DNA from: Okeania sp. KiyG1
GTDB taxonomy: Bacteria; Cyanobacteriota; Cyanobacteriia; Cyanobacteriales; Microcoleaceae
Direction: 5' to 3'
DNA: 32,000 bases
Assembly: GCF_014132355.1 (NCBI RefSeq)
Contig: NZ_BLZO01000093.1
Location: 154,881 to 186,880 of the forward strand
The notes under the pieces were generated by a model that did no database searches, was not told the origin of the DNA, and worked only from the letters and a program-made list of their open reading frames with translations. Shown here one piece after another: positions 686 to 32,000 of this stretch; position 1 is the stretch's first letter, and each line of letters starts with the position of its first letter. The position numbers were made by a program, and so were the translations under genes.

Positions 686-3501
686 ATGCAAATTCTTCAC
701 TTAGACTTGAAATTAATAGGGGATAATTATGCTCAATTCCGATACTTTTGGAATAATCCTAATAATTATCAAACCTCCGAGCAATTACCTCTGACAAAAA
801 TTTCTGCTCTAGTCGAAAAGTCAAACTCATACTATTACACCAGACTGCCAGAAGACCCTGACAAAACTGGTCAAATACTTTATAACTGGTTAGATGGAAA
901 TAGCCGTATTTTGCAAAGGGAAATTGATAAAAATCGACGAGAAGGAATTGTTTTAGCTATTTCTACTTCAGAAAGATTAGCTCATTTACCTTGGGAATTG
1001 CTCCATGATGGTAAAGGATTTTTAGTTAATTCTAAACCTGCCATTATTCCTGTTCGTTGGATGACGGATAGTCAACAACTTTCTTTTCAAAATCAACCTC
1101 ATAACCGAGCATTAAATGTTGTGTTTATGGCAACTTCCCCCCCGCAACATGGGAGACCATTTTTCGGAACTTGATTTTGAAGCGGAGGAGGGAAGTATTT
1201 TAGAAGCAACTAAAAGAACACCTTTGTTTTTAGAAGTAGAAGAAAGTGGTTGTTTGACTGAATTAGGTTATCTGGTGGGAAATCAGGAAGAGAATTTTTT
1301 TTGATGTTATTCATCTCACAGGTCATACAAAATTTCGGAATGATAAACCTTGCTTTGTTACTGAGACAGAATATGGAGAGGCAGAATATAGTAGTGGGGA
1401 AGATATTGCTACACAATTACAATATCGATACCCTAAACTGATTTTTCTATCCGGTTGTCGGACTGGATATGAATATGAAGAAAATATTCCGTCAATGGCA
1501 GAATCTTTATTGAGTGAACGTGTAACAGCAGTTTTAGGATGGGGCGATCGGGTTTTAGATACAGATGCAACAACAGTAGCAGCAAAATTTTATCAGGGGT
1601 TGTCTTCTGGAAAAAGAGTAACGGAAGCATTGGCGGAAACTTACCAGGAATTAATTAAAGTTAATGCTAGAGACTGGCATAAATTACGACTTTATGTGGC
1701 GGGTAGTTTACCGGGAGCGTTAGTAACTCCCTTGAGAAAACCAGGTCGGAAACCTGCACCCCGTTACAACAAAACAATTGATGAATTTAGGGATGAAGAG
1801 CGTAAATTTAGAGTAGTAAATCGTGAAAATTTTGTTGGTCGTCGCCGTCAGTTACAAAATTGTCTCCGTGCTTTTAAGTTAGATGATAAGTTGGGAATAT
1901 TAATTCATGGTATGGGAGGTTTAGGAAAAAGTACCATTGCTTCTCGACTTTGGGAACGTTTCTCGGAATATGAAACAGTCTTATGGTGGCAACAAATAGA
2001 TAGTTCTAATTTAGTACAAAAATTGGCAGATAAATTGAGGGATGCTGACCTACGTTCTAAATTACAAAATAATAAAAATGGACTTAAATATAGGTTGCGA
2101 GATTTGTTTGAAAATTTGATTGAAGCTGGAGCAAAACCTTTTCTTTTCCTCTTTGATGATTTTGAATTTAATCTCGAACCTCGTGAGGGTGGATTTGTTT
2201 TGAAACCTGAAGTGGCAGAAGTTTTAGATGCTTTGGTTTTTGCAATTCGAGAAATAGGTAGGGAAAAAATTATTATTACTTCTCGTTATGAGTTTCAATA
2301 TGATTTATTAAGTGAGTTTTGGGTACAAGGTTTAGACGCATTTCGCAAAGCTGATTTAAAGAAAAAATTGAAACGTCTGGAGAATTTTAATTCGGGAAAA
2401 ATTGATGAAAAGTTAATCGAAAGAGCCTTAAAACTTGCAGATGGAAATCCCCGTTTATTGGAATGGTTGGATAAAGATGTGCTTGCCTGTAAGAATATTG
2501 ATGCCAAACTAACTGAGCATGAATCTAGTTCTGAAGATTGGAAATGGAAAATAACTAGGTCTGAACTTTATGCACAAATTGATGAAAAAGGTATTCAGGT
2601 ATTGAGTAATTGTTTAGTGTTGGAAATTCCTGTACCGATGTTAGCTTTAGATGCGGTTTGTGAGTCTATTTCTGGTTATCAAGAAAAGTTAAATCAAGCG
2701 GTAGATTTAGGTTTAATAGAAACTGGTTCGGAAGTAGAAGAATCTGAGCGTGTTTATCGAGTTTCACGGATTGTACCTCATATTATTTCGAGTATTAAAT
2801 TGCCTGAAGTTCCTGAAGTTTATTCTTTGTATGAAAAAGGTTCGGAAAAGTTGTTTGAGTTATGGGGGAAGAAAGACAATAGAAGTGAGGAAAAATGGCG
2901 TGAGATTTTCCGGTTAAAGTTTGCCAATAAAGAAAATCCTGAGCGATTTCGAGAGGGATTTTCTCAAATGTTGTCCTGCGACTATTATAGTGCAGCTGAT
3001 TCTGCTTATAAGTCTGAACTTAAGCAAATCAAAACGGAACTAACAGAACTACTAAAGAATAATAATTTGGAAGAATATTTGTGTCAAGGTGAATGGAGAA
3101 AAGCTGATGAGCAGACAGTAGTTATTTTTTATCAAGTAATGGCATTAAGGGATATTCAAACATCTTTTATTTATGATGATAAGGAGTTTCCAATGTCAAT
3201 ACTTAAGTACATAGACCAACTTTGGATAAAATATAGTAATGGTAAGTTTGGTTTTTCCGTCCAAAAGAAAATTTATCAGAGTTTGGGTGGAAAAGGAAAA
3301 TATGACAAGGAAGTATACGAAGCATTTGGTAATGAAGTCGGATGGCGTTCAGGAGAAAAACAGTTGCATTATTCAGACCTAACTTTTAGCTTGAATACTG
3401 ATTATACTGGGCATCTCCCGTTTCAGGCATGGCAGTATTGGGAAGCGACAGAATCAATGAGGCCGAAGATAGAATTTGTTAATTTGGGTAAACTTTTATG
3501 A
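686..3501 (+). pseudogene. CHAT (caspase-like) protease - STAND P-loop NTPase (NB-ARC/NACHT-like) - GUN4 domain protein, interrupted by two +1 frameshifts
   Basis: Three collinear ORFs: 686-1174 (frame 2), 1116-1304 (frame 3), and frame 1 open from 1303 to 3501. The CHAT N-region has HLPWELLHD. Catalytic His lies in DVIHLTGH (His codon 1324-1326) and catalytic Cys in IFLSGCRTG (1456-1458). Walker A is GMGGLGKST (~1909-1935) and Walker B is LFLFDDFE. The C-terminal GUN4 signature is IDQLWIKYSNGKFGFSVQKKIY...VGW...LHYSDLTFSL...GHLP (~3088-3420). The frame changes coincide with a C7 run (1137-1143) and a T8 run (1295-1302). Removing one base from each gives a continuous ~937-aa protein (FMATSPRNMGDHFSELDFEAEE and EENFFDVIHLTGH). 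Confidence 0.8.
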
Positions 3502-3947: not shown

Positions 3948-6900
3948 TTAACTATTCTCTGACAATTTCTTAGCTTTGCACAACTGCACCCAATGTTTCC
4001 AACCCATATACAAACCAAATAACAATATCGCCCAAACAAAACTAGGTTCTGGAATACCTACCATCCCATCAGGAGTCTGTTTTTTCACTTTCTCCCGACG
4101 ACTAGAACTACTAGGATCAACTCGTTGCTCGTCACTCACCGCCACAAAAGCAGTATATTTCGACATCAACCGATAACCCAAAGCGACATTTGTCACAGCT
4201 TCAACTTTTTCTGACATCTCCCCATCAGTCATTTCCAACATCAATTCCTTAATTTTGGCTCGTCCCCAAAGTTGAGCGATCGCTTCATTCCCACCATCTG
4301 AGTCGAAGCGCAAGGGAAAGGTCTTACGATATGGTTTTCCACCAGCAGCAACGGCAGTTATTTGCAAGTTTCCACTGAGTCGGTCTTGTTTACGTCCGTA
4401 CAAAATTAAAGGTTCTTGAGCAAATAAGTCTGCAGGTTTGAGTGGGAATATTTCGGGAGCTTCTCCTAAACCCTGCCAAGTTACTTCTATATTGGTCAAA
4501 ACTGGGTTATTAATTTCATTGAAAAACTTTTCTACTACCGCATCGACAGATTCATCGTGACGTACAACATGGACTGTACCCCGTCCTACTTCTGCTAGTC
4601 GGTTTAATAAAAATCGATTTACGGAGCTACCAACACCAAAACTATAGAGACGGTTTCCTGGTTGTAGTTGTTTTTGTATGCGAGAAATGATTTGATTTTC
4701 ATTGCCAATTAAACCATCTGTTACTAGGACAATACTTCGCAGTCGCCCATTTTTTGCTGGTGAAAAGTTCAGTACAGTATCAATTCCATTGAGTAATTCT
4801 GTTCCACCATTTGCCTTTAAGTTATTAACATAATCTATGGCTTTTTTCTGGTTAGCAGGAGTATTAGCTAAAGGTTGGGTTGATAATGTTTGAGCGCTAT
4901 TAGCAAAGTCAATAATTGTGAAGGTATCGTCAGGATTTAATCCCTGAAGAAAACGGCGCATTAATACTTTTGATTGTGCTAAAGGCGCACCGCTTTGGGA
5001 ACCGGATGTATCCATCAAAAATACTACATCTTTCGGTACAATTTCTTTGGTTTGATATTCCAGAGCGGGAATTAAAGAAACTGCAAAATGTCCGCCTTTA
5101 TTATCTGCTTGAGAGAGAACTGTAGATTGGGTTTCTTTGCCAGCTACTTGATAACGAAGAACTAAATCTTTATTGGGAATAGTGTCAGTTTTGTTTAATT
5201 GTACTTGAGTAATAGATGGTAATCCTGACGCAGCAATTTTTTGAATTTGGATTTGATGGGAGGGAGAGATAATATTAGAAATTGGTACTCCGGCATCAAT
5301 TTCAACTGTGACATTAATATCATGACCAGAACGTTCTTTTGGTGGAGTTTTTGCCGTTTGAGAAAGTAAGTTAGTCAGATAATTTGTGGTAGGTAAACTG
5401 GCTAAATGAATTGGTTTTTCTGGAAAACTACTTAAATTAGAATTTCCTGGATTATAACGAGGTCCGACAACCATTGGAAAGACAAATTCATAGTCACCCC
5501 CGGCAAATTTTAAAGCATCAGTGTAGCGAATTACTACCTCTATAGTTTCCCCTGGTTGAATATTAGCTAAAGACTGAGTAAAAATATTAGCTCGTTCTTG
5601 TTCCAGTAAAGCAGCAGTTTTTCCTTCTTTTTTAGCTTTATTGTAGATTTTTTTTGCTTGTTCCCGTTTTTTAATCATGCCTTTAATCACGCGATCGCCT
5701 ATACGAATTTCCATATCATCCACGGCAGATTCATCGGGAAGTGGAAATTGATAAACTGCTTCTAAAGGAGTTTTATAAGGATTAGTAAAACGTTGTACTA
5801 CTTCTACTCTCGATACATTTCCCGCAATTTTAGCTGTAACATCTGTATGTTCTAATGGAAAAGCTTGTACTGTCCCTGTGGGAGATTTTGCATATAATCC
5901 GCCAAATTCTGGAGGCGAAATAACTGGTTTTTGAGGTTCTGATTTAAGTTTTTCTGATTGAATAACAACAGGTTTTTGTCGAGGAGAACTTGAAAATATT
6001 CCTGCTAAAACTATCCCCGTTAAAAATAAGCAAGTTATACCTGCAACTCCACCAATAAATAATTTAGGAAGATTATTTTTGACTGTAGTTAATTCTGGAT
6101 AACTATTCAAATCATGTAAAATTTCCCGTGCTGTTTGATAACGATTTTTAGTCGCAGTTTTCAGCATTTTATCAAGAATTTGACTCAACTGAAGAGAAAC
6201 AGGACTTTTCAAATAATCTCGCCAAACCCAACTATCCTCACTACTATCAAATAAATCAAAAGGTGCTACTCCAGTAAGTAGATAAATACAAGTTATAGCC
6301 AAACTATAAATATCACTAGCAAAGATAGCTTTACCCCTTACTTGTTCCGGCGCAATATATGCTGCTGAACCAATTAAAGTTCCAGTTTTTGCCAAAGCAG
6401 TTTTAGAGGTAAATTTAGCTGCACCAAAATCAACTAAAACTAGAGAATTTTTTTGATTTTCATCCCGCTCGGAGTTAGCAATACGAACAATATTTTCTGG
6501 TTTAATATCTCGGTGTATTACCTGATGGCTATGAACAAACTCCAAGATAGGTAACATTTCATTCAGAAATTCTCGGATTTTAGCTTCACTGAAAACTCCC
6601 TCTGTTGCCAACTCTTCAGCTAAGTTTTGACCAGCAATATATTCTTGTACTAAATATTGATGATTATCTTGAACTAAATGAGCAAAAAGTTCTGGTATTT
6701 GTCGATGTTTGCCGAGGGTTTCTAAACGTATTGCTTCTTGTTCAAATAATTCTGTAGCCTTCTGAATACTTTTAGCATCTTGAACTGTAGAGAAAAATTG
6801 TTTAATTACACATAAAGGTTTTGAAGGTTTGAACTCATCCACAGCTTTAAAAGTTCGACCAAAACCACCCTCACCAATAATTTCTAAAGCACGATATCGT

Positions 6901-7004
6901 TCTGCCAATAATAGTTTTGAACCACATTCCTGACATAGTTCTGTTTCTGCTGAATTCTGATGTAAACAGTTAGGATTAAAACATTTACTCATGGCATTTC
7001 TCAA
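3948..7004 (-). CDS. Ser/Thr protein kinase - TM - VIT domain - von Willebrand A domain - C-terminal PEP-CTERM-like anchor
   Basis: 1018-aa ORF. The N-terminus has a zinc-ribbon-like CFNPNC...CQECGSKL. Hanks kinase motifs: GEGGFGRTF, VIHRDIKPENI, DFG, APE. TM helix: LFIGGVAGITCLFLTGIVLAGIF. VIT-like block: PLEHTDVTAKIAGNVSRVEVVQRFTNP...AVYQFPLPDESAVDDM. vWA MIDAS: VVFLMDTSGSQSG. C-terminal tail: GIPEPSFVWAILLFGLYMGWKHW..KAKK. Confidence 0.85.
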   Translation of the reverse strand: MRNAMSKCFNPNCLHQNSAETELCQECGSKLLLAERYRALEIIGEGGFGRTFKAVDEFKPSKPLCVIKQFFSTVQDAKSIQKATELFEQEAIRLETLGKHRQIPELFAHLVQDNHQYLVQEYIAGQNLAEELATEGVFSEAKIREFLNEMLPILEFVHSHQVIHRDIKPENIVRIANSERDENQKNSLVLVDFGAAKFTSKTALAKTGTLIGSAAYIAPEQVRGKAIFASDIYSLAITCIYLLTGVAPFDLFDSSEDSWVWRDYLKSPVSLQLSQILDKMLKTATKNRYQTAREILHDLNSYPELTTVKNNLPKLFIGGVAGITCLFLTGIVLAGIFSSSPRQKPVVIQSEKLKSEPQKPVISPPEFGGLYAKSPTGTVQAFPLEHTDVTAKIAGNVSRVEVVQRFTNPYKTPLEAVYQFPLPDESAVDDMEIRIGDRVIKGMIKKREQAKKIYNKAKKEGKTAALLEQERANIFTQSLANIQPGETIEVVIRYTDALKFAGGDYEFVFPMVVGPRYNPGNSNLSSFPEKPIHLASLPTTNYLTNLLSQTAKTPPKERSGHDINVTVEIDAGVPISNIISPSHQIQIQKIAASGLPSITQVQLNKTDTIPNKDLVLRYQVAGKETQSTVLSQADNKGGHFAVSLIPALEYQTKEIVPKDVVFLMDTSGSQSGAPLAQSKVLMRRFLQGLNPDDTFTIIDFANSAQTLSTQPLANTPANQKKAIDYVNNLKANGGTELLNGIDTVLNFSPAKNGRLRSIVLVTDGLIGNENQIISRIQKQLQPGNRLYSFGVGSSVNRFLLNRLAEVGRGTVHVVRHDESVDAVVEKFFNEINNPVLTNIEVTWQGLGEAPEIFPLKPADLFAQEPLILYGRKQDRLSGNLQITAVAAGGKPYRKTFPLRFDSDGGNEAIAQLWGRAKIKELMLEMTDGEMSEKVEAVTNVALGYRLMSKYTAFVAVSDEQRVDPSSSSRREKVKKQTPDGMVGIPEPSFVWAILLFGLYMGWKHWVQLCKAKKLSENS

Positions 7005-7026
7005 CTTTCTAGAATGACAGTCATTT

Positions 7027-7060
7027 CAGTTATCAGTTATCAGTTATCAGTTATCAGTAT
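7027..7060. repeat. Heptamer tandem repeat (CAGTTAT)x4 plus a partial copy
   Basis: Direct reading; located just upstream of the kinase start codon on the minus strand. Confidence 0.9.
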
Positions 7061-7177
7061 CTCTGCAATAAGGAGGCTACAAAAATACAGAATCTTCTTT
7101 TCTCTTAGTCTGATGGATATGGTTCTGAGACCTCACTATCCCACCCTATTCTTAAGAGACAATATTGTTGTGTGACT

Positions 7178-8810
7178 AATCAACCCAAAACGATATTACC
7201 TAAGATTTTAAATAAGGAAATAGCATTTTGTTTATCTCCACTGTCAACTTCCTATTTTCCCGAATAGTAGAAAAAAATTTTTGTCTAACTTTTTTTGTAA
7301 AGTGCAAGAGTTACAACAAATTGATAAATTTTTGCTACAAATAGCTAGGATATTTCTTAGGAGTCAGGAGTCAGGAGTCATATGGGAATGACTTTAATAC
7401 CAGTTTTTAGGTCGGAATTTATCTGTTTAGTTCAAGAGATATCTCCGATAAAGTATTTTAATTATCCTCATTATTCGTAACATTCTTTTTCAAATTAGTA
7501 TAATCAACCCAAAACGACATTATCTAAGATTTTAAATAAGGAAATATCATTTTGTTTATTTCCACTGTCAACTTCCTATTTTCCCGAATAGTAGAAAAAA
7601 TTTTTGTCTAACTTTTTTGTAAAGTGCAAGAGTTACAACAAATTGATAAATTTTTGCTACAAATAGCTAGGATATTTCTTAGGAATCAGGAGTCAGAAGT
7701 CAGGAGTTGTATCGGAATGACTTTAATACCATTTTTTAGGTCTGAATTTATCTGTTTAGTCCAAGAGATATCTCCGATAAAGTATTTTAATTATCCTCAT
7801 TATTCGTAACATTCTTTTTCAAATTAGTATAATCAACCCAAAACGACATTATCTAAGATTTTAAATAAGGAAATATCATTTTGTTTATTTCCACTGTCAA
7901 CTTCCTATTTTCCCGAATAGTAGAAAAAATTTTTGTCTAACTTTTTTGTAAAGTGCAAGAGTTACAACAAATTGATAAATTTTTGCTACAAATAGCTAGG
8001 ATATTTCTTAGGAATCAGGAGTCAGAAGTCAGGAGTTGTATCGGAATGACTTTAATACCATTTTTTAGGTCTGAATTTATCTGTTTAGTCCAAGAGATAT
8101 CTCCGATAAAGTATTTTAATTATCCTCATTATTCGTAACATTCTTTTTCAAATTAGTATAATCAACCAAAAACGATATTACCTAAGATTTTAAATAAGGA
8201 AATAGCATTTTGTTTATCTCCACTGTCAACTTCCTATTTTCCCGAATAGTAGAAAAAAATTTTTGTCTAACTTTTTTTGTAAAGTGCAAGAGTTACAACA
8301 AATTGATAAATTTTTGCTACAAATAGCTAGGATATTTCTTAGGAGTCAGGAGTCAGGAGTCATATGGGAATGACTTTAATACCAGTTTTTAGGTCGGAAT
8401 TTATCTGTTTAGTTCAAGAGATATCTCCGATAAAGTATTTTAATTATCCTCATTATTCGTAACATTCTTTTTTCAAATTAGTATAATCAACCCAAAACGA
8501 CATTACCTAAGATTTTAAATAAGGAAATATCATTTTGTTGATCTCCACTGTCAACTTCCTATTTTCCCGAATAGTAGAAAAAAATTTTTGTCTAACTTTT
8601 TTTGTAAAGTGCAAGAGTTACAACAAATTGATAAATTTTTGCTACAAATAGCTAGGATATTTCTTAGGAGTCAGGAGAGTCATAATGAATGACTTTAATA
8701 CCATTTTTTAGGTTTTAATTTATCTTTTTATTCCAAGAGACATCTCGGATAAAATATTTTAATTTCCCTTATTATTCGTAACATTCTTTATTCAAATTGT
8801 TAAAATATTT
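7178..8810. repeat. Tandem array of five ~324-329-bp units (pattern A-B-B-A'-C), non-coding
   Basis: Units start at AATCAACC at 7178, 7502, 7831, 8160 and 8485. Units 2 and 3 are identical (they give the identical ORFs 7624-7809 and 7953-8138). Units 1 and 4 differ by about 2 positions. Unit 5 is diverged. Each unit embeds an (AGGAGTC)n heptamer tract, and a TATAAT box sits at each internal junction (7499-7504, 7828-7833, 8157-8162, 8482-8487). Confidence 0.9.
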
Positions 8811-8921
8811 TGCTCTATCGCTAAGTACTATTCATCCACATATAGTATTACTATGCAGAACTACTAAAAAAATAAATTTCATATTTCAAGCTTCCTACTT
8901 CAGCAGTCGGTAATGATAGTG

Positions 8922-9300
8922 GTGAAAAAAATTTACCCATAAATGTCGATTTGACTAAAAACAGAGTTTGATTCTCATAACTCTAATAAATGATATATAG
9001 GCTATTTCTACTGACTACTGACTACTGACTACTGACTCCTAAAGAATGTAGTGAAAAAAATTTACCCATAAATGTCGATTTGACTAAAAACAGAGTTTGA
9101 TTCTCATAACTCTAATAAATGATATATAGGCTATTTCTACTGACTACTGACTACTGACTCCTGACTCCTAAAGAATGTGTTTAAAAAAATTTACCTAGAA
9201 ATGTCGACTTGACTAACAACAGAGTTTGATTCTAATAACTCTAATAAATTATATATGGGCTATTTCTACTGAATCTTGACTCCTGACTCCTAAAAAATGC
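8922..9300. repeat. Tandem array of three ~126-129-bp units, each ending in (CTGACTA/CTGACTC)n heptamers
   Basis: Units begin at 8922, 9051 and ~9177 (GTGAAAAAAATTTACCCATAAATGTCGATTTGACTAAAAACAGAGTTTGATTCTCATAACTCTAATAAATGATATATAGGCTATTTCTACTGACTA...). The third unit overlaps the 3' end of the methyltransferase ORF. Confidence 0.85.
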
Positions 9301-26253: not shown

Positions 26254-26849
26254 ATGAATGAAAGTAATTTTATCGAAGTTAATGGTATTAGCTTTGAAAT
26301 TCTAGTGCCATAACAGGTATTATTCCTGCCTAAAAAAACCTAATTCATAAAGTTTCGGATATAGGGAAATATCTATCAAAACTACCTTTAAATCTGTCCA
26401 CAGGATATACGGTGGAGATAGTAATTAGGATTATTAACAATAGCGATCGCCCTCTTTACTTTAGTTTTTATTTTGCATTATTTCCTGAAATTTTTAGAGC
26501 TAAAGATGGTGCAAGCGTACCATTTGATATAGGGTGGTATAGCCTAGCTTCACCATTAAAATCAGATTTTATTTTAGCTATACCGGGAGAAAGTATCAGC
26601 TTTTTTCTTGATGCCAAAATATCTTGGCTTTGTGGTAAAAACTATGGTCTTAGTACCTCATTTGGAGGTGAGAGATTACTTATTCAACCTCTCCATTCAG
26701 AACGGTATAAACTTCGGCTGATATATGAAAATCAGAAAGATACTGCAGAATGCTATGACTTTCTTAACAAACAAACTCAAGTAATCGAAGGATTTTGGGC
26801 TGGTCAAGTATTAACTCCATTTGTAGATATTTATTTAGTTCCTAATTAA
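26254..26849 (+). pseudogene. Paralog-array copy a (subtype 1), disrupted
   Basis: ATG 26254 gives MNESNFIEVNGISFEILVP, then TAA at 26311-26313. An A7 run (26332-26338) has one base fewer than the A8 in copy b, shifting the frame. The remainder is the track ORF 26412-26849. Confidence 0.7.
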
Positions 26850-26923
26850 GATTAATTAGAATGACAACTGCTAAAGAATTGTTTGAGATTATACCCCGCT
26901 CCAGATAAATATATTTGAGGAAA

Positions 26924-27520
26924 ATGACTGAAAGTAAATTTAATGAAGTCGATAATATTCGCTTTGAAACCCTAGTGCAAGAACAGGTATTAGTACTGCC
27001 TAAAAAAAATTTAATTCAAAAACTTTCGGACATAGGGAAACATTTATTAACATCACCCTTACATCCATCCCCAGGATATCCGGTGGAGATAGGAATTAGG
27101 ATTACCAATAATAGCGATCGCCCTTTTTTCTTTAGTTTTAATTTGACATTATTTCCAGAACTTATTAGATCTGAAACTGTTGAAGTTGTCGAATTAAGCG
27201 GGGGTTGGATTAGTCTTGCTGGAGCATTATAATCAGATTTACCTTTAACTATGCCTGGAGAAAGTATCAGCTTTTTTATTGATGCCAAAATATGTTGGCT
27301 TTGTGGCAAAAATTACGGACTTAGCACGATTATCAGTGGTGGTCAATTTGTTTTTCAACCTCTTGATTTAGGGTGGTATCAGCTTCGCTTTATATATGAA
27401 AATCAAAAAGGAACTATACAGCTATATGGTTCCCTTATCAATAAAATTCAAGTAATAGAAGGATTATGGACTGGTCAAGTATTAACTCCGTTTGTAGATA
27501 TTTTCTTAGTCAATAACTAA
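26924..27520 (+). pseudogene. Paralog-array copy b (subtype 2) with a single in-frame TAA
   Basis: ORFs 26915-27232 and 27251-27520 are in the same frame, separated only by TAA at 27230-27232 (AGAL*SDLPLTMPGES versus AGVKEADLALTMPGES in copy g). The likely start is ATG 26924 (MTESKFNEVDNIRFE). Confidence 0.7.
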
Positions 27521-27619
27521 GGTTGAAAATTTATATTTTGACAGAAATAAACATCAAGCAATAACTCCATTTTTAGAAGTTAATATAGTTAAAGTTGATA
27601 CAGGTAATATTCAGGAAAT

Positions 27620-28216
27620 ATGAACGAAAAAAACTTTATTGAAGTTAATGGTATTCGCTTTGAAACCATTGTTCCCAAACGAGTATTAACTCTGCCTAAA
27701 AAAGACATTCTTCAAAAACTTTCATACATAGGAAAATATCTATCAAAACCACCCTTACATCCGTCCCCAGGATATCCGGTGGAGATAGGAATTAGGATTA
27801 CTAATAATAGAGATCGCCCTCTTTACTTTAGTTTTAATTTTGCATTATTTCCTGAAATTATTAGAGTGGAAAATGGGAAAAATATTCTATTTGAAGGAGG
27901 GTGGTTTCATCCGGAACAGCCCTTACAATCAGATTTTTATGTAACTATGCCTGGAGAAAGTACCAGCTTTTTTATTGATGCCAAAATATGTTGGCTTTGT
28001 GGCAACAATTACGGACTTAGCATAGATTTTAACGGAGGTGAATTTATTTTTAAACCCCTTAGATTGGGAAGATATAAACTTCGGTTAATTTATCACAATC
28101 AAACAGATAAGAATTGGTTTTATGATTCTGTTAATAAACAAACTCAAGTAATAGAAGGACTTTGGATAGGTAGAGTATTAACTCCGTTCGTAGAAATTGA
28201 TTTAGTCCGGCAATAA
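27620..28216 (+). CDS. Paralog-array copy c (subtype 3), intact; uncharacterised ~198-aa protein
   Basis: Full-length ORF with all family blocks: NFIEVNGIRFETIVP, PVEIGIRITNN.DRPLYF, MPGES.SFFIDAKICWLCG, YKLRLIY.NQ, QVIEGLW.G.VLTPFVEI.LV. Confidence 0.8.
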   Translation: MNEKNFIEVNGIRFETIVPKRVLTLPKKDILQKLSYIGKYLSKPPLHPSPGYPVEIGIRITNNRDRPLYFSFNFALFPEIIRVENGKNILFEGGWFHPEQPLQSDFYVTMPGESTSFFIDAKICWLCGNNYGLSIDFNGGEFIFKPLRLGRYKLRLIYHNQTDKNWFYDSVNKQTQVIEGLWIGRVLTPFVEIDLVRQ

Positions 28217-28265
28217 GGAAGAGTAGAATAACTATTTGAACAGAAAAATGTAGATTGTTTTCCGG

Positions 28266-28490
28266 TAATTACCAAATAATGAATAATGAATAATTAATAA
28301 TTAATAATTAAATAATTCACGCCTTGAAGCCTCTCCTTTTAAGGGTAAAAAAGTGGTCGAGAGATGGCGAGGTCTCAGAGCCATATCCAATCGACAAAGA
28401 GAAGAAATAATATTTCCTTATATTCAATTCTGTAACGGTTTTAACCAGAGGTAATTATCAATTATCCATTATCAATTATCAATTAATGAA
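28266..28490 (+). repeat. Repeat element, inverted partner of 23898-24066
   Basis: The flanks GGTAATTACCAAATAATGAATAATGAATAATTAATAATTAATAATTAAATAATTCA and GAAATAATATTTCCTTATATTCAATTCTGTAACGGTTTTAACCAGAGGTAATTATCAATTATCCATTATCAATTATCAATTAATGAA match the reverse complement of 23898-24066. The ~85-nt centre differs. Confidence 0.7.
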
Positions 28491-28611
28491 TATACTGTTG
28501 TGATTAGATAGTTCTGAGAAAAAATTAAGTCAATTCCTGAAATTAAACCAGAGAAATAAATTAATACTTGATTTCAAGTCGTTGTGTACACCCATTAACA
28601 GGTTAACCTAA

Positions 28612-29790
28612 ATGAAATCAGCAGAACTTTTTGACAATAATAATGAAGCAAATAGGGTACTCTTAGAAATATGGGAACCAAGTTTAATAGTATTGCCCAT
28701 TCCAGAAAGAACTTCACTAGCAAATATTTCTTTTCGATTATGGCTGAAGTTGACTAATCAGACATTAAAACCTTGGAAAATTAATCCCGATGGAATAATT
28801 ATTCCAGAATTAATAGCATCCGATGGTAAACTTTTAGAAAGAGAATTAACTACTGATAATCGAAAAAATGAAGCGAACAGACCCTATCAAGGAGATAACT
28901 TAGTCAATAAAGTAGTCTATTTTATTTCAAATTTAATCGATCATTTTGCTAAAAGAGGTATTTCCTGGGTGAGTACCAAAAGAGCAACATCCATCTCCAT
29001 TACTGCTAATATTTGTTGGAAAAAAGATTTACTACAGTTACAGTTATTAACTAATAGATATCAAGCTTTGAACAGCTCATTTTTTGATGGAATAAAACCG
29101 GAAAATTATCAACTCAGATTCATATATTATTCAAGCAGTAAAATCAAACCTCAGCCAGAAAAAGAAACTTTCCAGACGATAAATAAAAAACCAATAAAAG
29201 GCGATAAATTAACAACTTATTTTGTAAATTTACGCTTGGTTTATCTCACCAATCCAAATGATAAAGTAATAGAAGTAGATGGTATCCGCTTTGAAACTAT
29301 ACTGCCAGAAACGGTATTGACTTTCCCAGAAAAAAAAGGTGATATTAGGATTCCTGTACAGATTGGCATTAGAATTAATAATAATACTCCAAACTCCCTT
29401 CGTTTTAGCTTTTATCGCACATTAAGTGGGGAAATTGTAACACCAAATGGTCAAATTGTGTCTGGAATATATCGACTTCTAGGAGTTAAAAGTCCAAAAG
29501 AATCAGATTTTCCGCTAGTCCTACCAGGAAAGAACCTTACCTTTTTTCCGAAAGCTTTATTCGAGTTTAAAGGCGATCGCTTTACACTAAGTATTGCTTT
29601 AGGAGATGGTGGCTTCCTGAGTTTTGAAATTTTTAAACCGGGAATATATCAGATTCGGTTTACATATAACAACAAGTTTGAAATAGCAACAATATATGAA
29701 CGAGAAATAAAAAATACAAGATTAATAGAAAATATTTGGATGGGAAGAATATCTACCCCTTTTGTAGGGTTTTGCTTCCGTACATTTTAA
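28612..29790 (+). CDS. Paralog-array copy d: two-domain member (divergent N-terminal copy + canonical C-terminal copy)
   Basis: 392 aa. Residues ~205-392 (VIEVDGIRFETILPETVLTFPEKK...PVQIGIRINNNTPNSLRFSF...LPGKNLTFF...YQIRFTYNN...IENIWMGRISTPFV) match the family. Residues 1-200 show the same order of blocks in weaker form (LLEIWEPSLIVLPIPE, ISFRLWLKLTNQT, ICW, YQLRFIYYS, YFVNLRLV). Confidence 0.75.
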   Translation: MKSAELFDNNNEANRVLLEIWEPSLIVLPIPERTSLANISFRLWLKLTNQTLKPWKINPDGIIIPELIASDGKLLERELTTDNRKNEANRPYQGDNLVNKVVYFISNLIDHFAKRGISWVSTKRATSISITANICWKKDLLQLQLLTNRYQALNSSFFDGIKPENYQLRFIYYSSSKIKPQPEKETFQTINKKPIKGDKLTTYFVNLRLVYLTNPNDKVIEVDGIRFETILPETVLTFPEKKGDIRIPVQIGIRINNNTPNSLRFSFYRTLSGEIVTPNGQIVSGIYRLLGVKSPKESDFPLVLPGKNLTFFPKALFEFKGDRFTLSIALGDGGFLSFEIFKPGIYQIRFTYNNKFEIATIYEREIKNTRLIENIWMGRISTPFVGFCFRTF

Positions 29791-29888
29791 CTCTACTACC
29801 CTTAGAGCTTATGTTTGTTTTTGATTAATTTAACTAAGAGAACAGGTAAGAAAAAGTGCAATTACAAAAATACTTTATGACAGGGCTA

Positions 29889-30146
29889 AGTATCAGCTTT
29901 TTTCTTGATGTCAATATCTGTTGGCTTTGTGGTAAAAACTATGGTTTTAGTACCTCATTTAGAGGTGAGAGATTACTTATTCAACCTCTCCATTCAGAAC
30001 GGTATAAACTGCGGTTGAGATATGAAAATCAGAAAGATACTAAAGAATGCTATGACTTTCTTAACAAACAAACTCAAGTAATAGAAGGATTGTGGACGGG
30101 TCAAGTATTAACTCCATTTGTAGATATTTGCTTAGTCAATAATTAA
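29889..30146 (+). pseudogene. Paralog-array copy e: 3' half only (subtype 1)
   Basis: Homology starts abruptly at ...SISFFLDVNICWLCGKNYGFSTSFRGERLLIQPLHSERYKLRLRYENQKDTKECYDFLNKQTQVIEGLWTGQVLTPFVDICLVNN. This is close to the 3' half of copy a. There is no N-terminal half upstream. Confidence 0.6.
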
Positions 30147-30386
30147 GATTGAAAAATTAGATGTTAACAGGAATAGATATCGAGTAATAATTCCATGGAG
30201 TGAAAAAAAGCAAACATTCATTTATTACTATTAAAGGAGAAATAAAAAATGCAATTGCGAGGGTATTTGAAAAAATTCCTGACAACAAACAAGGTTGTTG
30301 TACTTACTCGTCAGTCTGCTGTAGCATTTACGATCGCATACCCACATTTAAAGTCGTTGTGTACACTAATTAACAGCTTAACCTAA

Positions 30387-30518
30387 ATGAAACCAGCAGA
30401 ATCTTTTGACAATAATAATAATGAAGCAAATAGCATACGCTTAGAAATATGGGAACCAAGTTTAATAGTATTGCCCATTCCAGAAAGAACTTCACTAGCA
30501 AATATTTCTTTTCAATAG
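30387..30518 (+). pseudogene. Paralog-array fragment f: 5' stub of the two-domain type
   Basis: MKPAESFDNNNNEANSIRLEIWEPSLIVLPIPERTSLANISFQ* plus ~36 nt of upstream sequence (30351-30517) duplicates 28576-28737. It ends at TAG where similarity stops. Confidence 0.55.
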
Positions 30519-30667
30519 ATTTTATCGGCTAGTATTTATTATTATGATTAGGTAGGAAGCTGAAAAAGCAGTTTAATTCTGGTAATCAACCTACACTAAC
30601 GGCTTTTGTTATTTGTATAATTAATTTCAGATTGTATACTTATACAGATAGAGATATTTTATGAAAT

Positions 30668-31264
30668 ATGAACGAAAGCAACTTTATCGAAGTTAATGGT
30701 GTTCGCTTTGAAACCATTGTACCCAAACGAGTATTAACTCTGCCTAAAAAAGACATTCTTCAAAAACTTTCATACATAGGAAAACATCTATTAACACCGC
30801 CCTTACATCCTTCCCCAGGATATCCGGTAGAGATAGGAATTAGGATTACCAATAATAGCGATCGCCCTCTTTACTTTATTTTCAATTTTGTATTATTTCC
30901 AGAACTTATTAGAGCGGAAACTGGTGAAATTGTAGAAATAAGTGGGGGTTGGATAAGTCTTGCTGGAGTAAAGGAAGCAGATTTAGCTTTAACTATGCCT
31001 GGAGAAAGTACCGGCTTTTTTCTTGATACCAAAATCTGTTGGCTTTGTGGCAACAATTATGGAATTAGCATGGTTATAAGTGGTGGTCAGTTTGTTTTTG
31101 AACCTCTTGATTTAGGGTGGTATCAGCTTCGATTTACATATGAAAATCAAAAAGAAACTAAACAGCTATATGATTCCATTACCAAAAAAACTCAAGTAAT
31201 AGAAGGGTTATGGACGGGTCAAGTATTAACTCCGTTTGTAGATATTTGGTTAGTCAATAATTAA
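30668..31264 (+). CDS. Paralog-array copy g (subtype 2), intact
   Basis: Full-length 198-aa ORF, closest to copy b in the variable middle (ELIRAETGEIVEISGGWISLAG...SGGQFVFEPLDLGWYQLRF). Confidence 0.8.
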   Translation: MNESNFIEVNGVRFETIVPKRVLTLPKKDILQKLSYIGKHLLTPPLHPSPGYPVEIGIRITNNSDRPLYFIFNFVLFPELIRAETGEIVEISGGWISLAGVKEADLALTMPGESTGFFLDTKICWLCGNNYGISMVISGGQFVFEPLDLGWYQLRFTYENQKETKQLYDSITKKTQVIEGLWTGQVLTPFVDIWLVNN

Positions 31265-31571
31265 GGTTTAAAAATTATATTATTACAGAAATAAACATCA
31301 AGCGATAACTCCATTTTTGGAACTTAGGATACTCAAAGCAGAACAGTTTTTTAAATGGAAAGCTTTGGAAAGGAATGGTGTTAGTACCCCTTGTAGAATT
31401 ACATTTATAAATTTAGTCATTTGTGATTGGCAAGCAGTTTTCTGATTATTATGACAAATAAATCGGTAAAACTAGAGAGGAAATACAGATGTTTAGAGAC
31501 ATTAAATAAATCTAAAGTTTGGTAGAATTACTGTAGATTTTATTGGCTGATACAAGTAATATTTAGGTAAT

Positions 31572-32000
31572 ATGAATGAAAACAATTTTATCGAAGTTAA
31601 TGGTGTTCGCTTTGAAATCATTGTACCCAAACGAGTATTAACTCTGCCTAAAAAAGACATTCTTCAAAAACTTTCGGACATAGGAAAACATCTATCAAAA
31701 CCACCCTTACATCCGTCCCCAGGATATCCGGTGGAGATAGGAATTAGGATTACTAATAACAGCGATCGCCCTCTTTACTTTAGTTTTTATTTTGCATTAT
31801 TTCCTGAGATTATTAGGGCTAAAGATGGTGTAAGTGTACCATTTGATATAGGGTGGTTTAGCCCCGTTTCACCACTAAAATCTGATTTTATTTTAGCTAT
31901 ACCGGGAGAAAGTATCAGCTTTTTTCTTGATGCCAATATCTGTTGGCTTTGTGGTAAAAACTATGGTTTCACTACCTCATTTGGAGGTGAGAGATTACTT
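31572..32000 (+). CDS. Paralog-array copy h (subtype 1), open to the window end
   Basis: ATG 31572 gives MNENNFIEVNGVRFEIIVPKRVLTLPKKDILQKLSDIGKHLSKPPLHPSPGYPVEIGIRITNNSDRPLYFSFYFALFPEIIRAKDGVSVPFDIGWF... The frame stays open for 143 codons to position 32000. It is absent from the ORF track because no stop lies inside the window. Confidence 0.75.
   Translation, partial: MNENNFIEVNGVRFEIIVPKRVLTLPKKDILQKLSDIGKHLSKPPLHPSPGYPVEIGIRITNNSDRPLYFSFYFALFPEIIRAKDGVSVPFDIGWFSPVSPLKSDFILAIPGESISFFLDANICWLCGKNYGFTTSFGGERLL

Follow-up and report, generated by a model that had tools for sequence, protein, structure and literature searches.

The 32,000-nt stretch of the Okeania sp. KiyG1 genome analyzed here (the window) carries at its right-hand end, between positions 26254 and 32000, a tandem array of a ~198-aa paralog family that we refer to as PAR. 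Eight PAR copies or fragments, all on the same strand, were found in this region by open reading frame (ORF) listing, repeat finding, frame-by-frame translation and searches with a PAR profile hidden Markov model (HMM) built from 19 homologues, which returned E-values of 1e-43 to 1e-109 for the window pieces, far beyond chance. Their coordinates and lesions agree with an initial annotation of this DNA, made from the letters alone, as does the shuffled subtype order that it had given as 1, 2, 3, double, 1, double, 2, 1 (here A and B, both pseudogenes, then C, double, A fragment, double stub, B and A). The array almost certainly belongs to a module, described below, in which PAR genes precede a secreted surface-protein gene, for which we use the name SEC, and a gene for a membrane protein of the Wzy_C family. 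The features of the array and its left flank are as follows.

24248..25840, + strand: Hsp70-like gene, which flanks the array on its left by synteny in Okeania-like genomes only and lies outside the conserved module
26254..26849, + strand: PAR copy 1, type A, pseudogene (premature stop following ..EILVP and a subsequent frameshift in an A-run)
26924..27520, + strand: PAR copy 2, type B, pseudogene (single in-frame stop, ..LAGAL*SDL..)
27554..27592, + strand: short PAR 3' end remnant (..QAITPFLEVNIV..), from repeat families and translation; weak to the HMM (E 1.3)
27620..28216, + strand: PAR copy 3, type C, intact, 198 aa (ORF, PAR HMM); the copy modelled with AlphaFold2
28612..29790, + strand: two-domain PAR, intact, 392 aa (PAR HMM matches at residues 31-210 and 216-389)
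29889..30146, + strand: PAR 3' half, type A fragment (ORF list, translation, PAR HMM)
30249..30356, + strand: remnant of the SEC partner gene, 36 codons, signal-peptide end, MQLRGYLKKFLTTNKVVVLTRQSAVAFTIAYP.. (SEC HMM E 1.1e-5)
30387..30518, + strand: 5' stub (43 codons) of the two-domain PAR type (96% identity over 103 nt to the start at 28612)
30668..31264, + strand: PAR copy 7, type B, intact, 198 aa (ORF; 93.8% nt identity to the single Dapis copy)
31298..31407, + strand: short PAR 3' end remnant (..QAITPFLELRIL..), PAR HMM E 0.0022
31572..32000, + strand: PAR copy 8, type A, frame still open where the window ends (translation, PAR HMM)

Three PAR genes in the window are intact (type C, the double type and type B), in addition to the one open copy, and a protein of Okeania sp. 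KiyG1 matches the product of the ORF at 27620-28216 with 100% identity. In the two-domain protein the N-terminal PAR domain is degenerate and the C-terminal PAR domain is full. The upstream leader of the two-domain stub was also found to be duplicated (30346-30419 versus 28571-28644, 91%), and the remnant at 27554-27592 sits 79 nt past its matching part in copy 2. No N-terminal hydrophobic segment was observed in any window copy, in line with the absence of signal peptides and transmembrane segments reported initially. A promoter and terminator scan of the window yielded no signal above shuffled expectation, and the base composition of the array resembles that of the rest of the window.

A complete SEC gene was not found in the window, which contains only the 36-codon stub (in tblastn, its 36 aa are 56% identical to SEC of two other loci, L044 and L045, E 3-5e-6), and no Wzy_C remnant was recovered from the window by tblastn. 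The presence of the SEC stub inside the array indicates that the array descends from PAR-SEC modules.

Sequence variation and predicted fold of PAR

The PAR copies combine a conserved frame with variable segments, and the spare copies are pseudogenised, much as first described. Among intact copies, aa 1-70 are 91% identical and aa 110-131 are 73-86% identical; identity between types is 31-38% at aa 81-109, 26-53% at aa 132-150 and 44-56% at aa 161-176. Variation is strongest at aa 81-109 and marked in the two other segments too, and so is not confined to the ~30 residues named by the initial annotation. A CxxC block that had been listed among the shared motifs is present in the Okeania-type subfamily, but is not conserved in the wider family, and was therefore rejected as a functional motif.

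Nonsynonymous (dN) and synonymous (dS) substitutions were estimated by the Nei-Gojobori method. Codons 1-70 group by genome, with dS of 0.02-0.19 within a genome and 0.3-0.6 between genomes, which indicates concerted evolution, with gene conversion of the 5' part. Codons 71-180 group by type across genera and orders: here the Okeania type B differs from Roseofilum type B by a dN of 0.06 and a dS of 0.16 and from Dapis by a dN of 0.03 and a dS of 0.05, and comparisons between types gave a dN of ~0.3 and a dS of 0.6-1.3. The dN/dS ratio in the variable part was 0.3-0.6 and never reached values above 1. The sharing of types across genera and orders, together with dN/dS below 1, points to old, laterally shared types plus recombination, and the diversifying selection initially proposed for these cassettes is not demonstrated.

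It is conceivable that the array has no present function and represents decaying debris of former PAR-SEC modules, kept by recent duplication only. Such decay would leave behind damaged copies like the two pseudogenes and the three truncated ones, as well as the two or three tiny remnants and the SEC stub, and copy number varies between close relatives. This explanation nevertheless appears very improbable to us, as three full-length ORFs are kept, each of the intact types (C, double and B) has a full-length counterpart elsewhere (L004, L003 and L001), and the two single-domain types show dN/dS of 0.1-0.6 against their counterparts.

PAR proteins are ~180-200 aa in size, and an exhaustive profile search recovered 542 PAR cluster representatives, 313 of them at E <=1e-10 and many with two domains. 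The family was not recognized in the initial annotation, and our searches bear this out: no family match was obtained against Pfam, NCBIfam or PADLOC, and none against PDB sequences with either a single-protein query or a profile. Many cyanobacterial PARs start with a hydrophobic signal peptide or anchor (MRNF...), and Okeania-type PARs are without a hydrophobic N-terminus, having a helix insert in its place. In planctomycete-type proteins, the PAR domain follows the membrane helix of extracytoplasmic function (ECF)-sigma fusion proteins and hence is extracytoplasmic. Long fusions of this kind include P0070 (L053 1125-3938), P0079, P0102, P0109, P0132 and P0171, some of them with TIGR03067 or WD40 C-termini.

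The AlphaFold2 model of the intact type C copy (27620-28216) shows an all-beta sandwich into which a single helix is inserted at residues 30-42 (predicted local distance difference test score, pLDDT, 72; predicted template modelling score, pTM, 0.72), as had been guessed from the alternating hydrophobic pattern. The least confident loops of the model coincide with the variable segments. In a Foldseek search against the PDB, only generic Ig/FN3/macroglobulin-like sandwiches were retrieved, with a best E-value of 7.7e-3 and template modelling (TM) scores <=0.36.

Like the beta-sandwich protease inhibitors chagasin (I42) and BsuPI, PAR is small and all-beta and has leaderless forms. Weak matches to Inhibitor_I42 (PF09394) recur over one beta-hairpin of PAR, but all are under the 27.2-bit gathering cut-off (13.6 bits in the two-domain protein of the window, 23 bits in P0144; best E 0.004, in 2 of 19 members). 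A BsuPI (PF12690) match was absent for all window copies in the Pfam search, and the single match observed, at 17.2 bits (cut-off 22.9), falls in another domain of P0171. Neither a chagasin-like nor a BsuPI structure was among the top 50 Foldseek PDB matches of PAR, and SEC has no protease signature. Overall, the observation made in the initial annotation was confirmed and its interpretation is partly supported: it holds as a description of a cassette-like, unrecognized beta-sandwich family and fails on selection and, as shown below, on partners.

The PAR-SEC-Wzy_C module and its cassettes

To place the array in a wider context, PAR loci were collected from one genome per species. The scan returned 48 loci, nearly all labelled as filamentous cyanobacteria, and counts are given here over 49 loci. 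With adjacency defined as a distance of <=200 nt on the same strand, PAR is followed by SEC in 27 of the 49 loci, where SEC begins 4-112 nt past the last PAR gene, and SEC is in turn followed by a Wzy_C gene in 18 loci. Each module contains one to five PAR genes. A further 18 loci contain PAR and no SEC despite at least 2.5 kb of sequence beyond the last PAR, and in Nostoc single PARs without SEC occupy conserved syntenic housekeeping positions. No description of the PAR-SEC-Wzy_C module was found in the literature searched, including that on PEP-CTERM proteins and O-antigen ligases in cyanobacteria, and the module has apparently not been described before.

The initial annotation had proposed different partners, placing the array as a set of diversifying cassettes in a multi-gene system with the neighboring Hsp70-like ATPase and a kinase-FGE gene. 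The Hsp70-like gene is indeed adjacent to PAR in the window and in two further loci, L004 and L006, and cyanobacterial NTP-dependent conflict systems carry Hsp70, FGE-type (FGS) and GUN4 domains (Kaur et al., 2020; PMC7159879), the same kinds of genes that flank the array. PAR, however, is not a described component of those systems, and the linkage is not conserved. The Hsp70-like genes of L004 and L006 are 92-94% identical to the window gene and mark a single syntenic locus in close relatives; the gene is absent beside the other 47 loci, including that of another Okeania (L005). The kinase-FGE gene is adjacent to PAR in none of the 49 loci and is not syntenic even in L004 and L006. A lack of conserved Hsp70 or kinase linkage in other genomes, named in the annotation itself as evidence against its partner claim, is what was found, and with dN/dS below 1 as well this model is largely refuted and can be given hardly any credence.

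The number of PAR copies differs among the three Hsp70-flanked loci, with 8 copies or fragments in the window, 5 in L004 and 1 in L006. In L006 (Okeania hirsuta), a 3' fragment of the Hsp70-like gene is duplicated at 9456-9737 and separates the full-length gene from the one PAR copy, a further sign of recombination at this locus.

SEC proteins are composed of a Sec-type leader, a conserved ~260-aa N-domain, a Pro/Gly/Cys-rich linker, at times extra domains (e.g., NIDO), and a PEP-CTERM-like tail. The PEP-CTERM motif is visible (SVPESTSALGLLALGAWGIVKALKIRFDK) and scores 16-19 bits against PF07589, below the cut-off of 20.7, and one SEC homologue is named PEP-CTERM by NCBI. The SEC N-domain gave no match to Pfam, NCBIfam or PADLOC and none by PDB profile search or by Foldseek against the PDB or BFVD, although the core of its model has a pLDDT of ~90. 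An alignment of 45 sequences showed invariant polar residues D152, Q164, N169, D187 and D212 amid many Trp and Tyr residues. ZepA, a 27-kDa PEP-CTERM zinc exoprotein, was considered as the identity of SEC and ruled out, as SEC lacks its H-x-H-F/Y-H site.

The third gene encodes a polytopic membrane protein of the Wzy_C O-antigen-ligase family (PF04932, cut-off 31.7 bits), with scores of 37.1 bits in L001, 44.2 in L022 and 46.4 in L005; the L033 protein is under the cut-off at 19.2. Upstream of the PAR genes, eight loci also contain a gene for a Cys-rich protein of ~150 aa that has a membrane helix at its C-terminus (..GKLFWLMVIGAAVWFWFFR), for example at L014 8397-8891 and 13290-13769, L016 3329-3766 and L017 7973-8563, with others in further Microcoleus-type loci. 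It directly precedes an anchored PAR in several loci (e.g., L016) and has no match in Pfam or NCBIfam.

PAR and the SEC N-domain vary together. Across 31 adjacent pairs, the distances of the two were strongly correlated (Mantel r 0.805, a value reached in 0 of 2000 permutations). Between modules of the same genome, both genes differ by 62-73%; the one closer pair consists of the type A and type B modules of Roseofilum L001, which differ by 32% in PAR and 19% in SEC. The three SEC genes of this locus are 100% identical over their C-terminal ~330 aa and have different N-domains, and the two single-domain PARs upstream of them are identical over aa 1-70 and divergent beyond. This mosaic indicates that the variable unit is one contiguous stretch of DNA extending from mid-PAR to mid-SEC. 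The cassette accordingly consists of the 3' two-thirds of PAR and the 5' domain of SEC, with the 5' third of PAR and the 3' half of SEC homogenised within a genome. PAR type and SEC type remain paired across genomes, and types A and B of the window recur in Roseofilum in a different order, each ahead of its own SEC.

The two-domain PAR of Roseofilum (L001 8205-9461, L029 9260-10516) has a chimeric 5' end, in which the first ~20 codons of the single-domain type (MNENNFIEVDGIRFETLVPK) are joined to the two-domain start (..MKSHEPFSN..). This also points to cassette recombination.

Could PAR be an independent ligand-binding beta-sandwich, for example for a product of the Wzy_C-like enzyme such as a glycan or envelope component, that is merely co-inherited with SEC, the array being a decaying lineage-specific expansion? 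Its generic Ig/FN3/MG-like fold, its modular use in ECF-sigma fusion proteins and the stand-alone, syntenically conserved PARs of Nostoc would all be expected of such a protein, and one UniRef record labels a PAR member as 'Wzt C-terminal domain-containing'. Pfam, however, gave no support for Wzt_C or any carbohydrate-binding family. The divergence in L001 that spans mid-PAR to mid-SEC is hard to explain without functional coupling of the two variable parts, and PAR and SEC types stay paired across genomes. We regard this alternative as quite unlikely.

Candidate roles of PAR

Based on this co-variation, PAR would be a specificity-matched binding partner of the variable SEC N-domain, and that the two proteins bind is probable. 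PAR may in addition neutralize the N-domain in the manner of an immunity protein or antagonist; this immunity-like role is a possibility with the balance tilted somewhat against it. Leaderless PARs would act in the cytoplasm, and those with a signal peptide or anchor outside it. SEC has a Sec-type leader, such that a leaderless PAR should be unable to meet the folded domain before export in the producing cell, and binding of an incoming or extracytoplasmic domain would fit this arrangement. The Okeania array could then be an orphan repertoire shielding the cell against SEC variants from neighboring filaments, one that lateral transfer of cassettes and unequal recombination would have assembled and that would now be in partial decay. 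Taken as a whole, an orphan repertoire of SEC-binding, immunity-like partners is the best explanation we can offer for these sequences, and we put it forward tentatively, at just short of even confidence. Features that fit an effector-immunity system are the retention of PAR without SEC, the remnants and pseudogenes, the variable copy number and the types shared across taxa with low dS. The array is also surrounded by genes of the kinds found in conflict systems (STAND-GUN4, kinase-VIT-vWA, NACHT and kinase-FGE).

Alternatively, PAR may assist SEC specifically, as a chaperone, an escort or a factor in its assembly, or may be displayed together with it as a subunit, with the array left over after deletion of SEC. 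PAR would then bind the SEC N-domain and keep it inactive or unaggregated until exosortase sorting and glycosylation by the Wzy_C-like enzyme. A helper role would agree with the tight same-strand order of PAR, SEC and Wzy_C, with the co-divergence of PAR and SEC, with the compartment that anchored PARs share with exported SEC, and with the function of PEP-CTERM proteins as adhesion factors that are probably glycosylated. A helper should, however, vanish without its client, yet the 18 SEC-less loci keep PAR and Okeania-like genomes keep intact PARs. Up to five divergent PARs precede one SEC, and leaderless PARs would, for the reason given above, not encounter a Sec-exported folded domain.

An in-frame fusion of the SEC N-domain to a PAR domain in L051 might also be taken to favor a helper. 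This locus (4354-10746) contains, in order, two double PARs, the SEC-PAR fusion, a SEC of 310 aa and a Wzy_C protein of 443 aa, and the fusion protein (P0024, present in two samples) consists of a SEC N-domain with an internal deletion joined in frame to the PAR domain. It looks like a by-product of deletion and was rejected as strong 'Rosetta stone' evidence. On balance, we consider a helper function unlikely.

Several observations weigh against an immunity-like role and the orphan repertoire built on it. Library, PDB and BFVD searches matched the SEC N-domain to no known toxin or enzyme fold, its alignment of 45 sequences contains no invariant His, Ser, Glu or Lys, and the residues that are invariant look more like those of a glycan- or Ca-binding (lectin-like) domain than those of a hydrolase. 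Where PEP-CTERM proteins of cyanobacteria have been studied, their role is in adhesion to polysaccharide and not in killing (PMC12188702). The position of PAR upstream of SEC is unusual for immunity genes, and an immunity family would not usually have leaderless as well as anchored members. Any two genes that are inherited together would be expected to co-diverge. The PAR domain in the extracytoplasmic part of ECF-sigma fusions points to a general binding or sensing module, and the SEC-less syntenic single PARs of Nostoc may have a function of their own. Furthermore, the window ends at 32000, and the absence of SEC from KiyG1 comes from two SEC-protein searches of annotated proteins, which gave homologues from Okeania SIO2F4 and SIO3C4 and none from KiyG1.

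Neighboring genes and comparison with known systems

Elsewhere in the window, conflict-system-type genes (STAND NTPase-GUN4, kinase-VIT-vWA, NACHT NTPase and an HNH-type protein with PtuB-like matches) lie at 1495-3501, 3948-7004 (- strand), 16263-17219 (- strand) and 19631-20035 (- strand). Genes for an ABC ATPase, a phosphonate/phosphite-binding protein and a permease, followed by a D-2-hydroxyacid-dehydrogenase-family gene (15113-16126), occupy 10369-16126 on the + strand, an arrangement resembling a ptxABCD operon for phosphite uptake and oxidation. The kinase-FGE gene (- strand) contains, at 21825-22160, a tandem duplication of 168 nt (80% identity) that doubles a Pro/Thr-rich linker and a hydrophobic segment (ILGGLAGGGFVAAIL / ILGGLAVGGFVAAIL); with two membrane helices, the FGE-type domain would lie on the kinase side. 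A diversity-generating retroelement near this gene was considered and rejected, no template/variable repeat pair being present within 16-25 kb. A 75-nt direct repeat (88%) occurs upstream of the kinase-FGE start and of the Hsp70-like start (23240-23314 and 24133-24207), and a ~190-nt dispersed element is found at 23355-23548 and 13006-13161 and also in Okeania SIO2F4 (L005 28-218).

Polymorphic effector-immunity loci with orphan immunity genes include the cdiA-CT/cdiI modules of contact-dependent inhibition (CDI), Rhs loci, type VI secretion system (T6SS) arrays and the acquired interbacterial defence islands of Bacteroidales. PAR-SEC loci resemble these in that a variable domain and a small neighboring partner gene vary together, constant regions permit cassette exchange, partner arrays occur without an effector, truncated remnants and pseudogenes are present, and types are common to distant taxa. 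In contrast to these systems, the variable domain of SEC is N-terminal on a PEP-CTERM surface protein instead of C-terminal on a large exported toxin, the partner gene lies upstream and has both leaderless and anchored forms, SEC has no recognized toxin fold or activity, and there is no dedicated secretion system nearby.

The SEC-Wzy_C part of the module has its closest parallels in PEP-CTERM/exosortase proteins that are encoded with an O-glycosylation-ligase-like gene (TIGR03097 type) and in pilA-tfpO, a pair formed by a substrate and its Wzy_C-family O-oligosaccharyltransferase. SEC conforms to this pattern in its signal peptide, its Pro/Gly/Ser-rich linker, its tail of VPE(S/P), hydrophobic segment and basic residues, and the Wzy_C-family membrane protein encoded after it. 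Two uncharacterized elements are added to this arrangement, the SEC N-domain and the PAR gene or genes upstream; the TIGR03097 match is far under the cut-off (21 versus 188 bits), and the loci contain no exosortase gene.

TraA of Myxococcus is a surface receptor with a polymorphic N-terminal recognition domain and C-terminal sorting (MYXO-CTERM). SEC likewise is a surface protein whose N-terminal domain varies and which has a Cys/Gly-rich linker and a sorting tag at the C-terminus, and the hosts of both are social, multicellular organisms. However, TraA is not known to have a co-varying small upstream partner or orphan arrays, and no homology to SEC was detected.

PEP-CTERM proteins are abundant in filamentous cyanobacteria, with 35 in Nostoc punctiforme, and most are without an assigned role (PMC12188702). 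In the broadest form of our proposal, PAR-SEC would be an undescribed polymorphic system in which the variable N-domain of a probably glycosylated PEP-CTERM protein serves as an effector or recognition domain against neighboring filaments, PAR is the type-specific antidote, and mat-dwelling genera such as Okeania collect orphan PARs by cross-order transfer and so acquire protection from competitors; we regard this form as rather doubtful. The analysis newly defines PAR and the SEC N-domain as two uncharacterized families, together with a conserved module of three genes that has cassette-like variation and types shared across orders. Should PAR and SEC prove to be an effector-antidote or recognition pair, they would offer a first handle on cell-surface discrimination and competition in mat- and colony-forming cyanobacteria and would tie exosortase sorting to conflict between filaments. 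If they are only a helper and its client, the module would still provide a testable entry into the maturation of PEP-CTERM glycoproteins.

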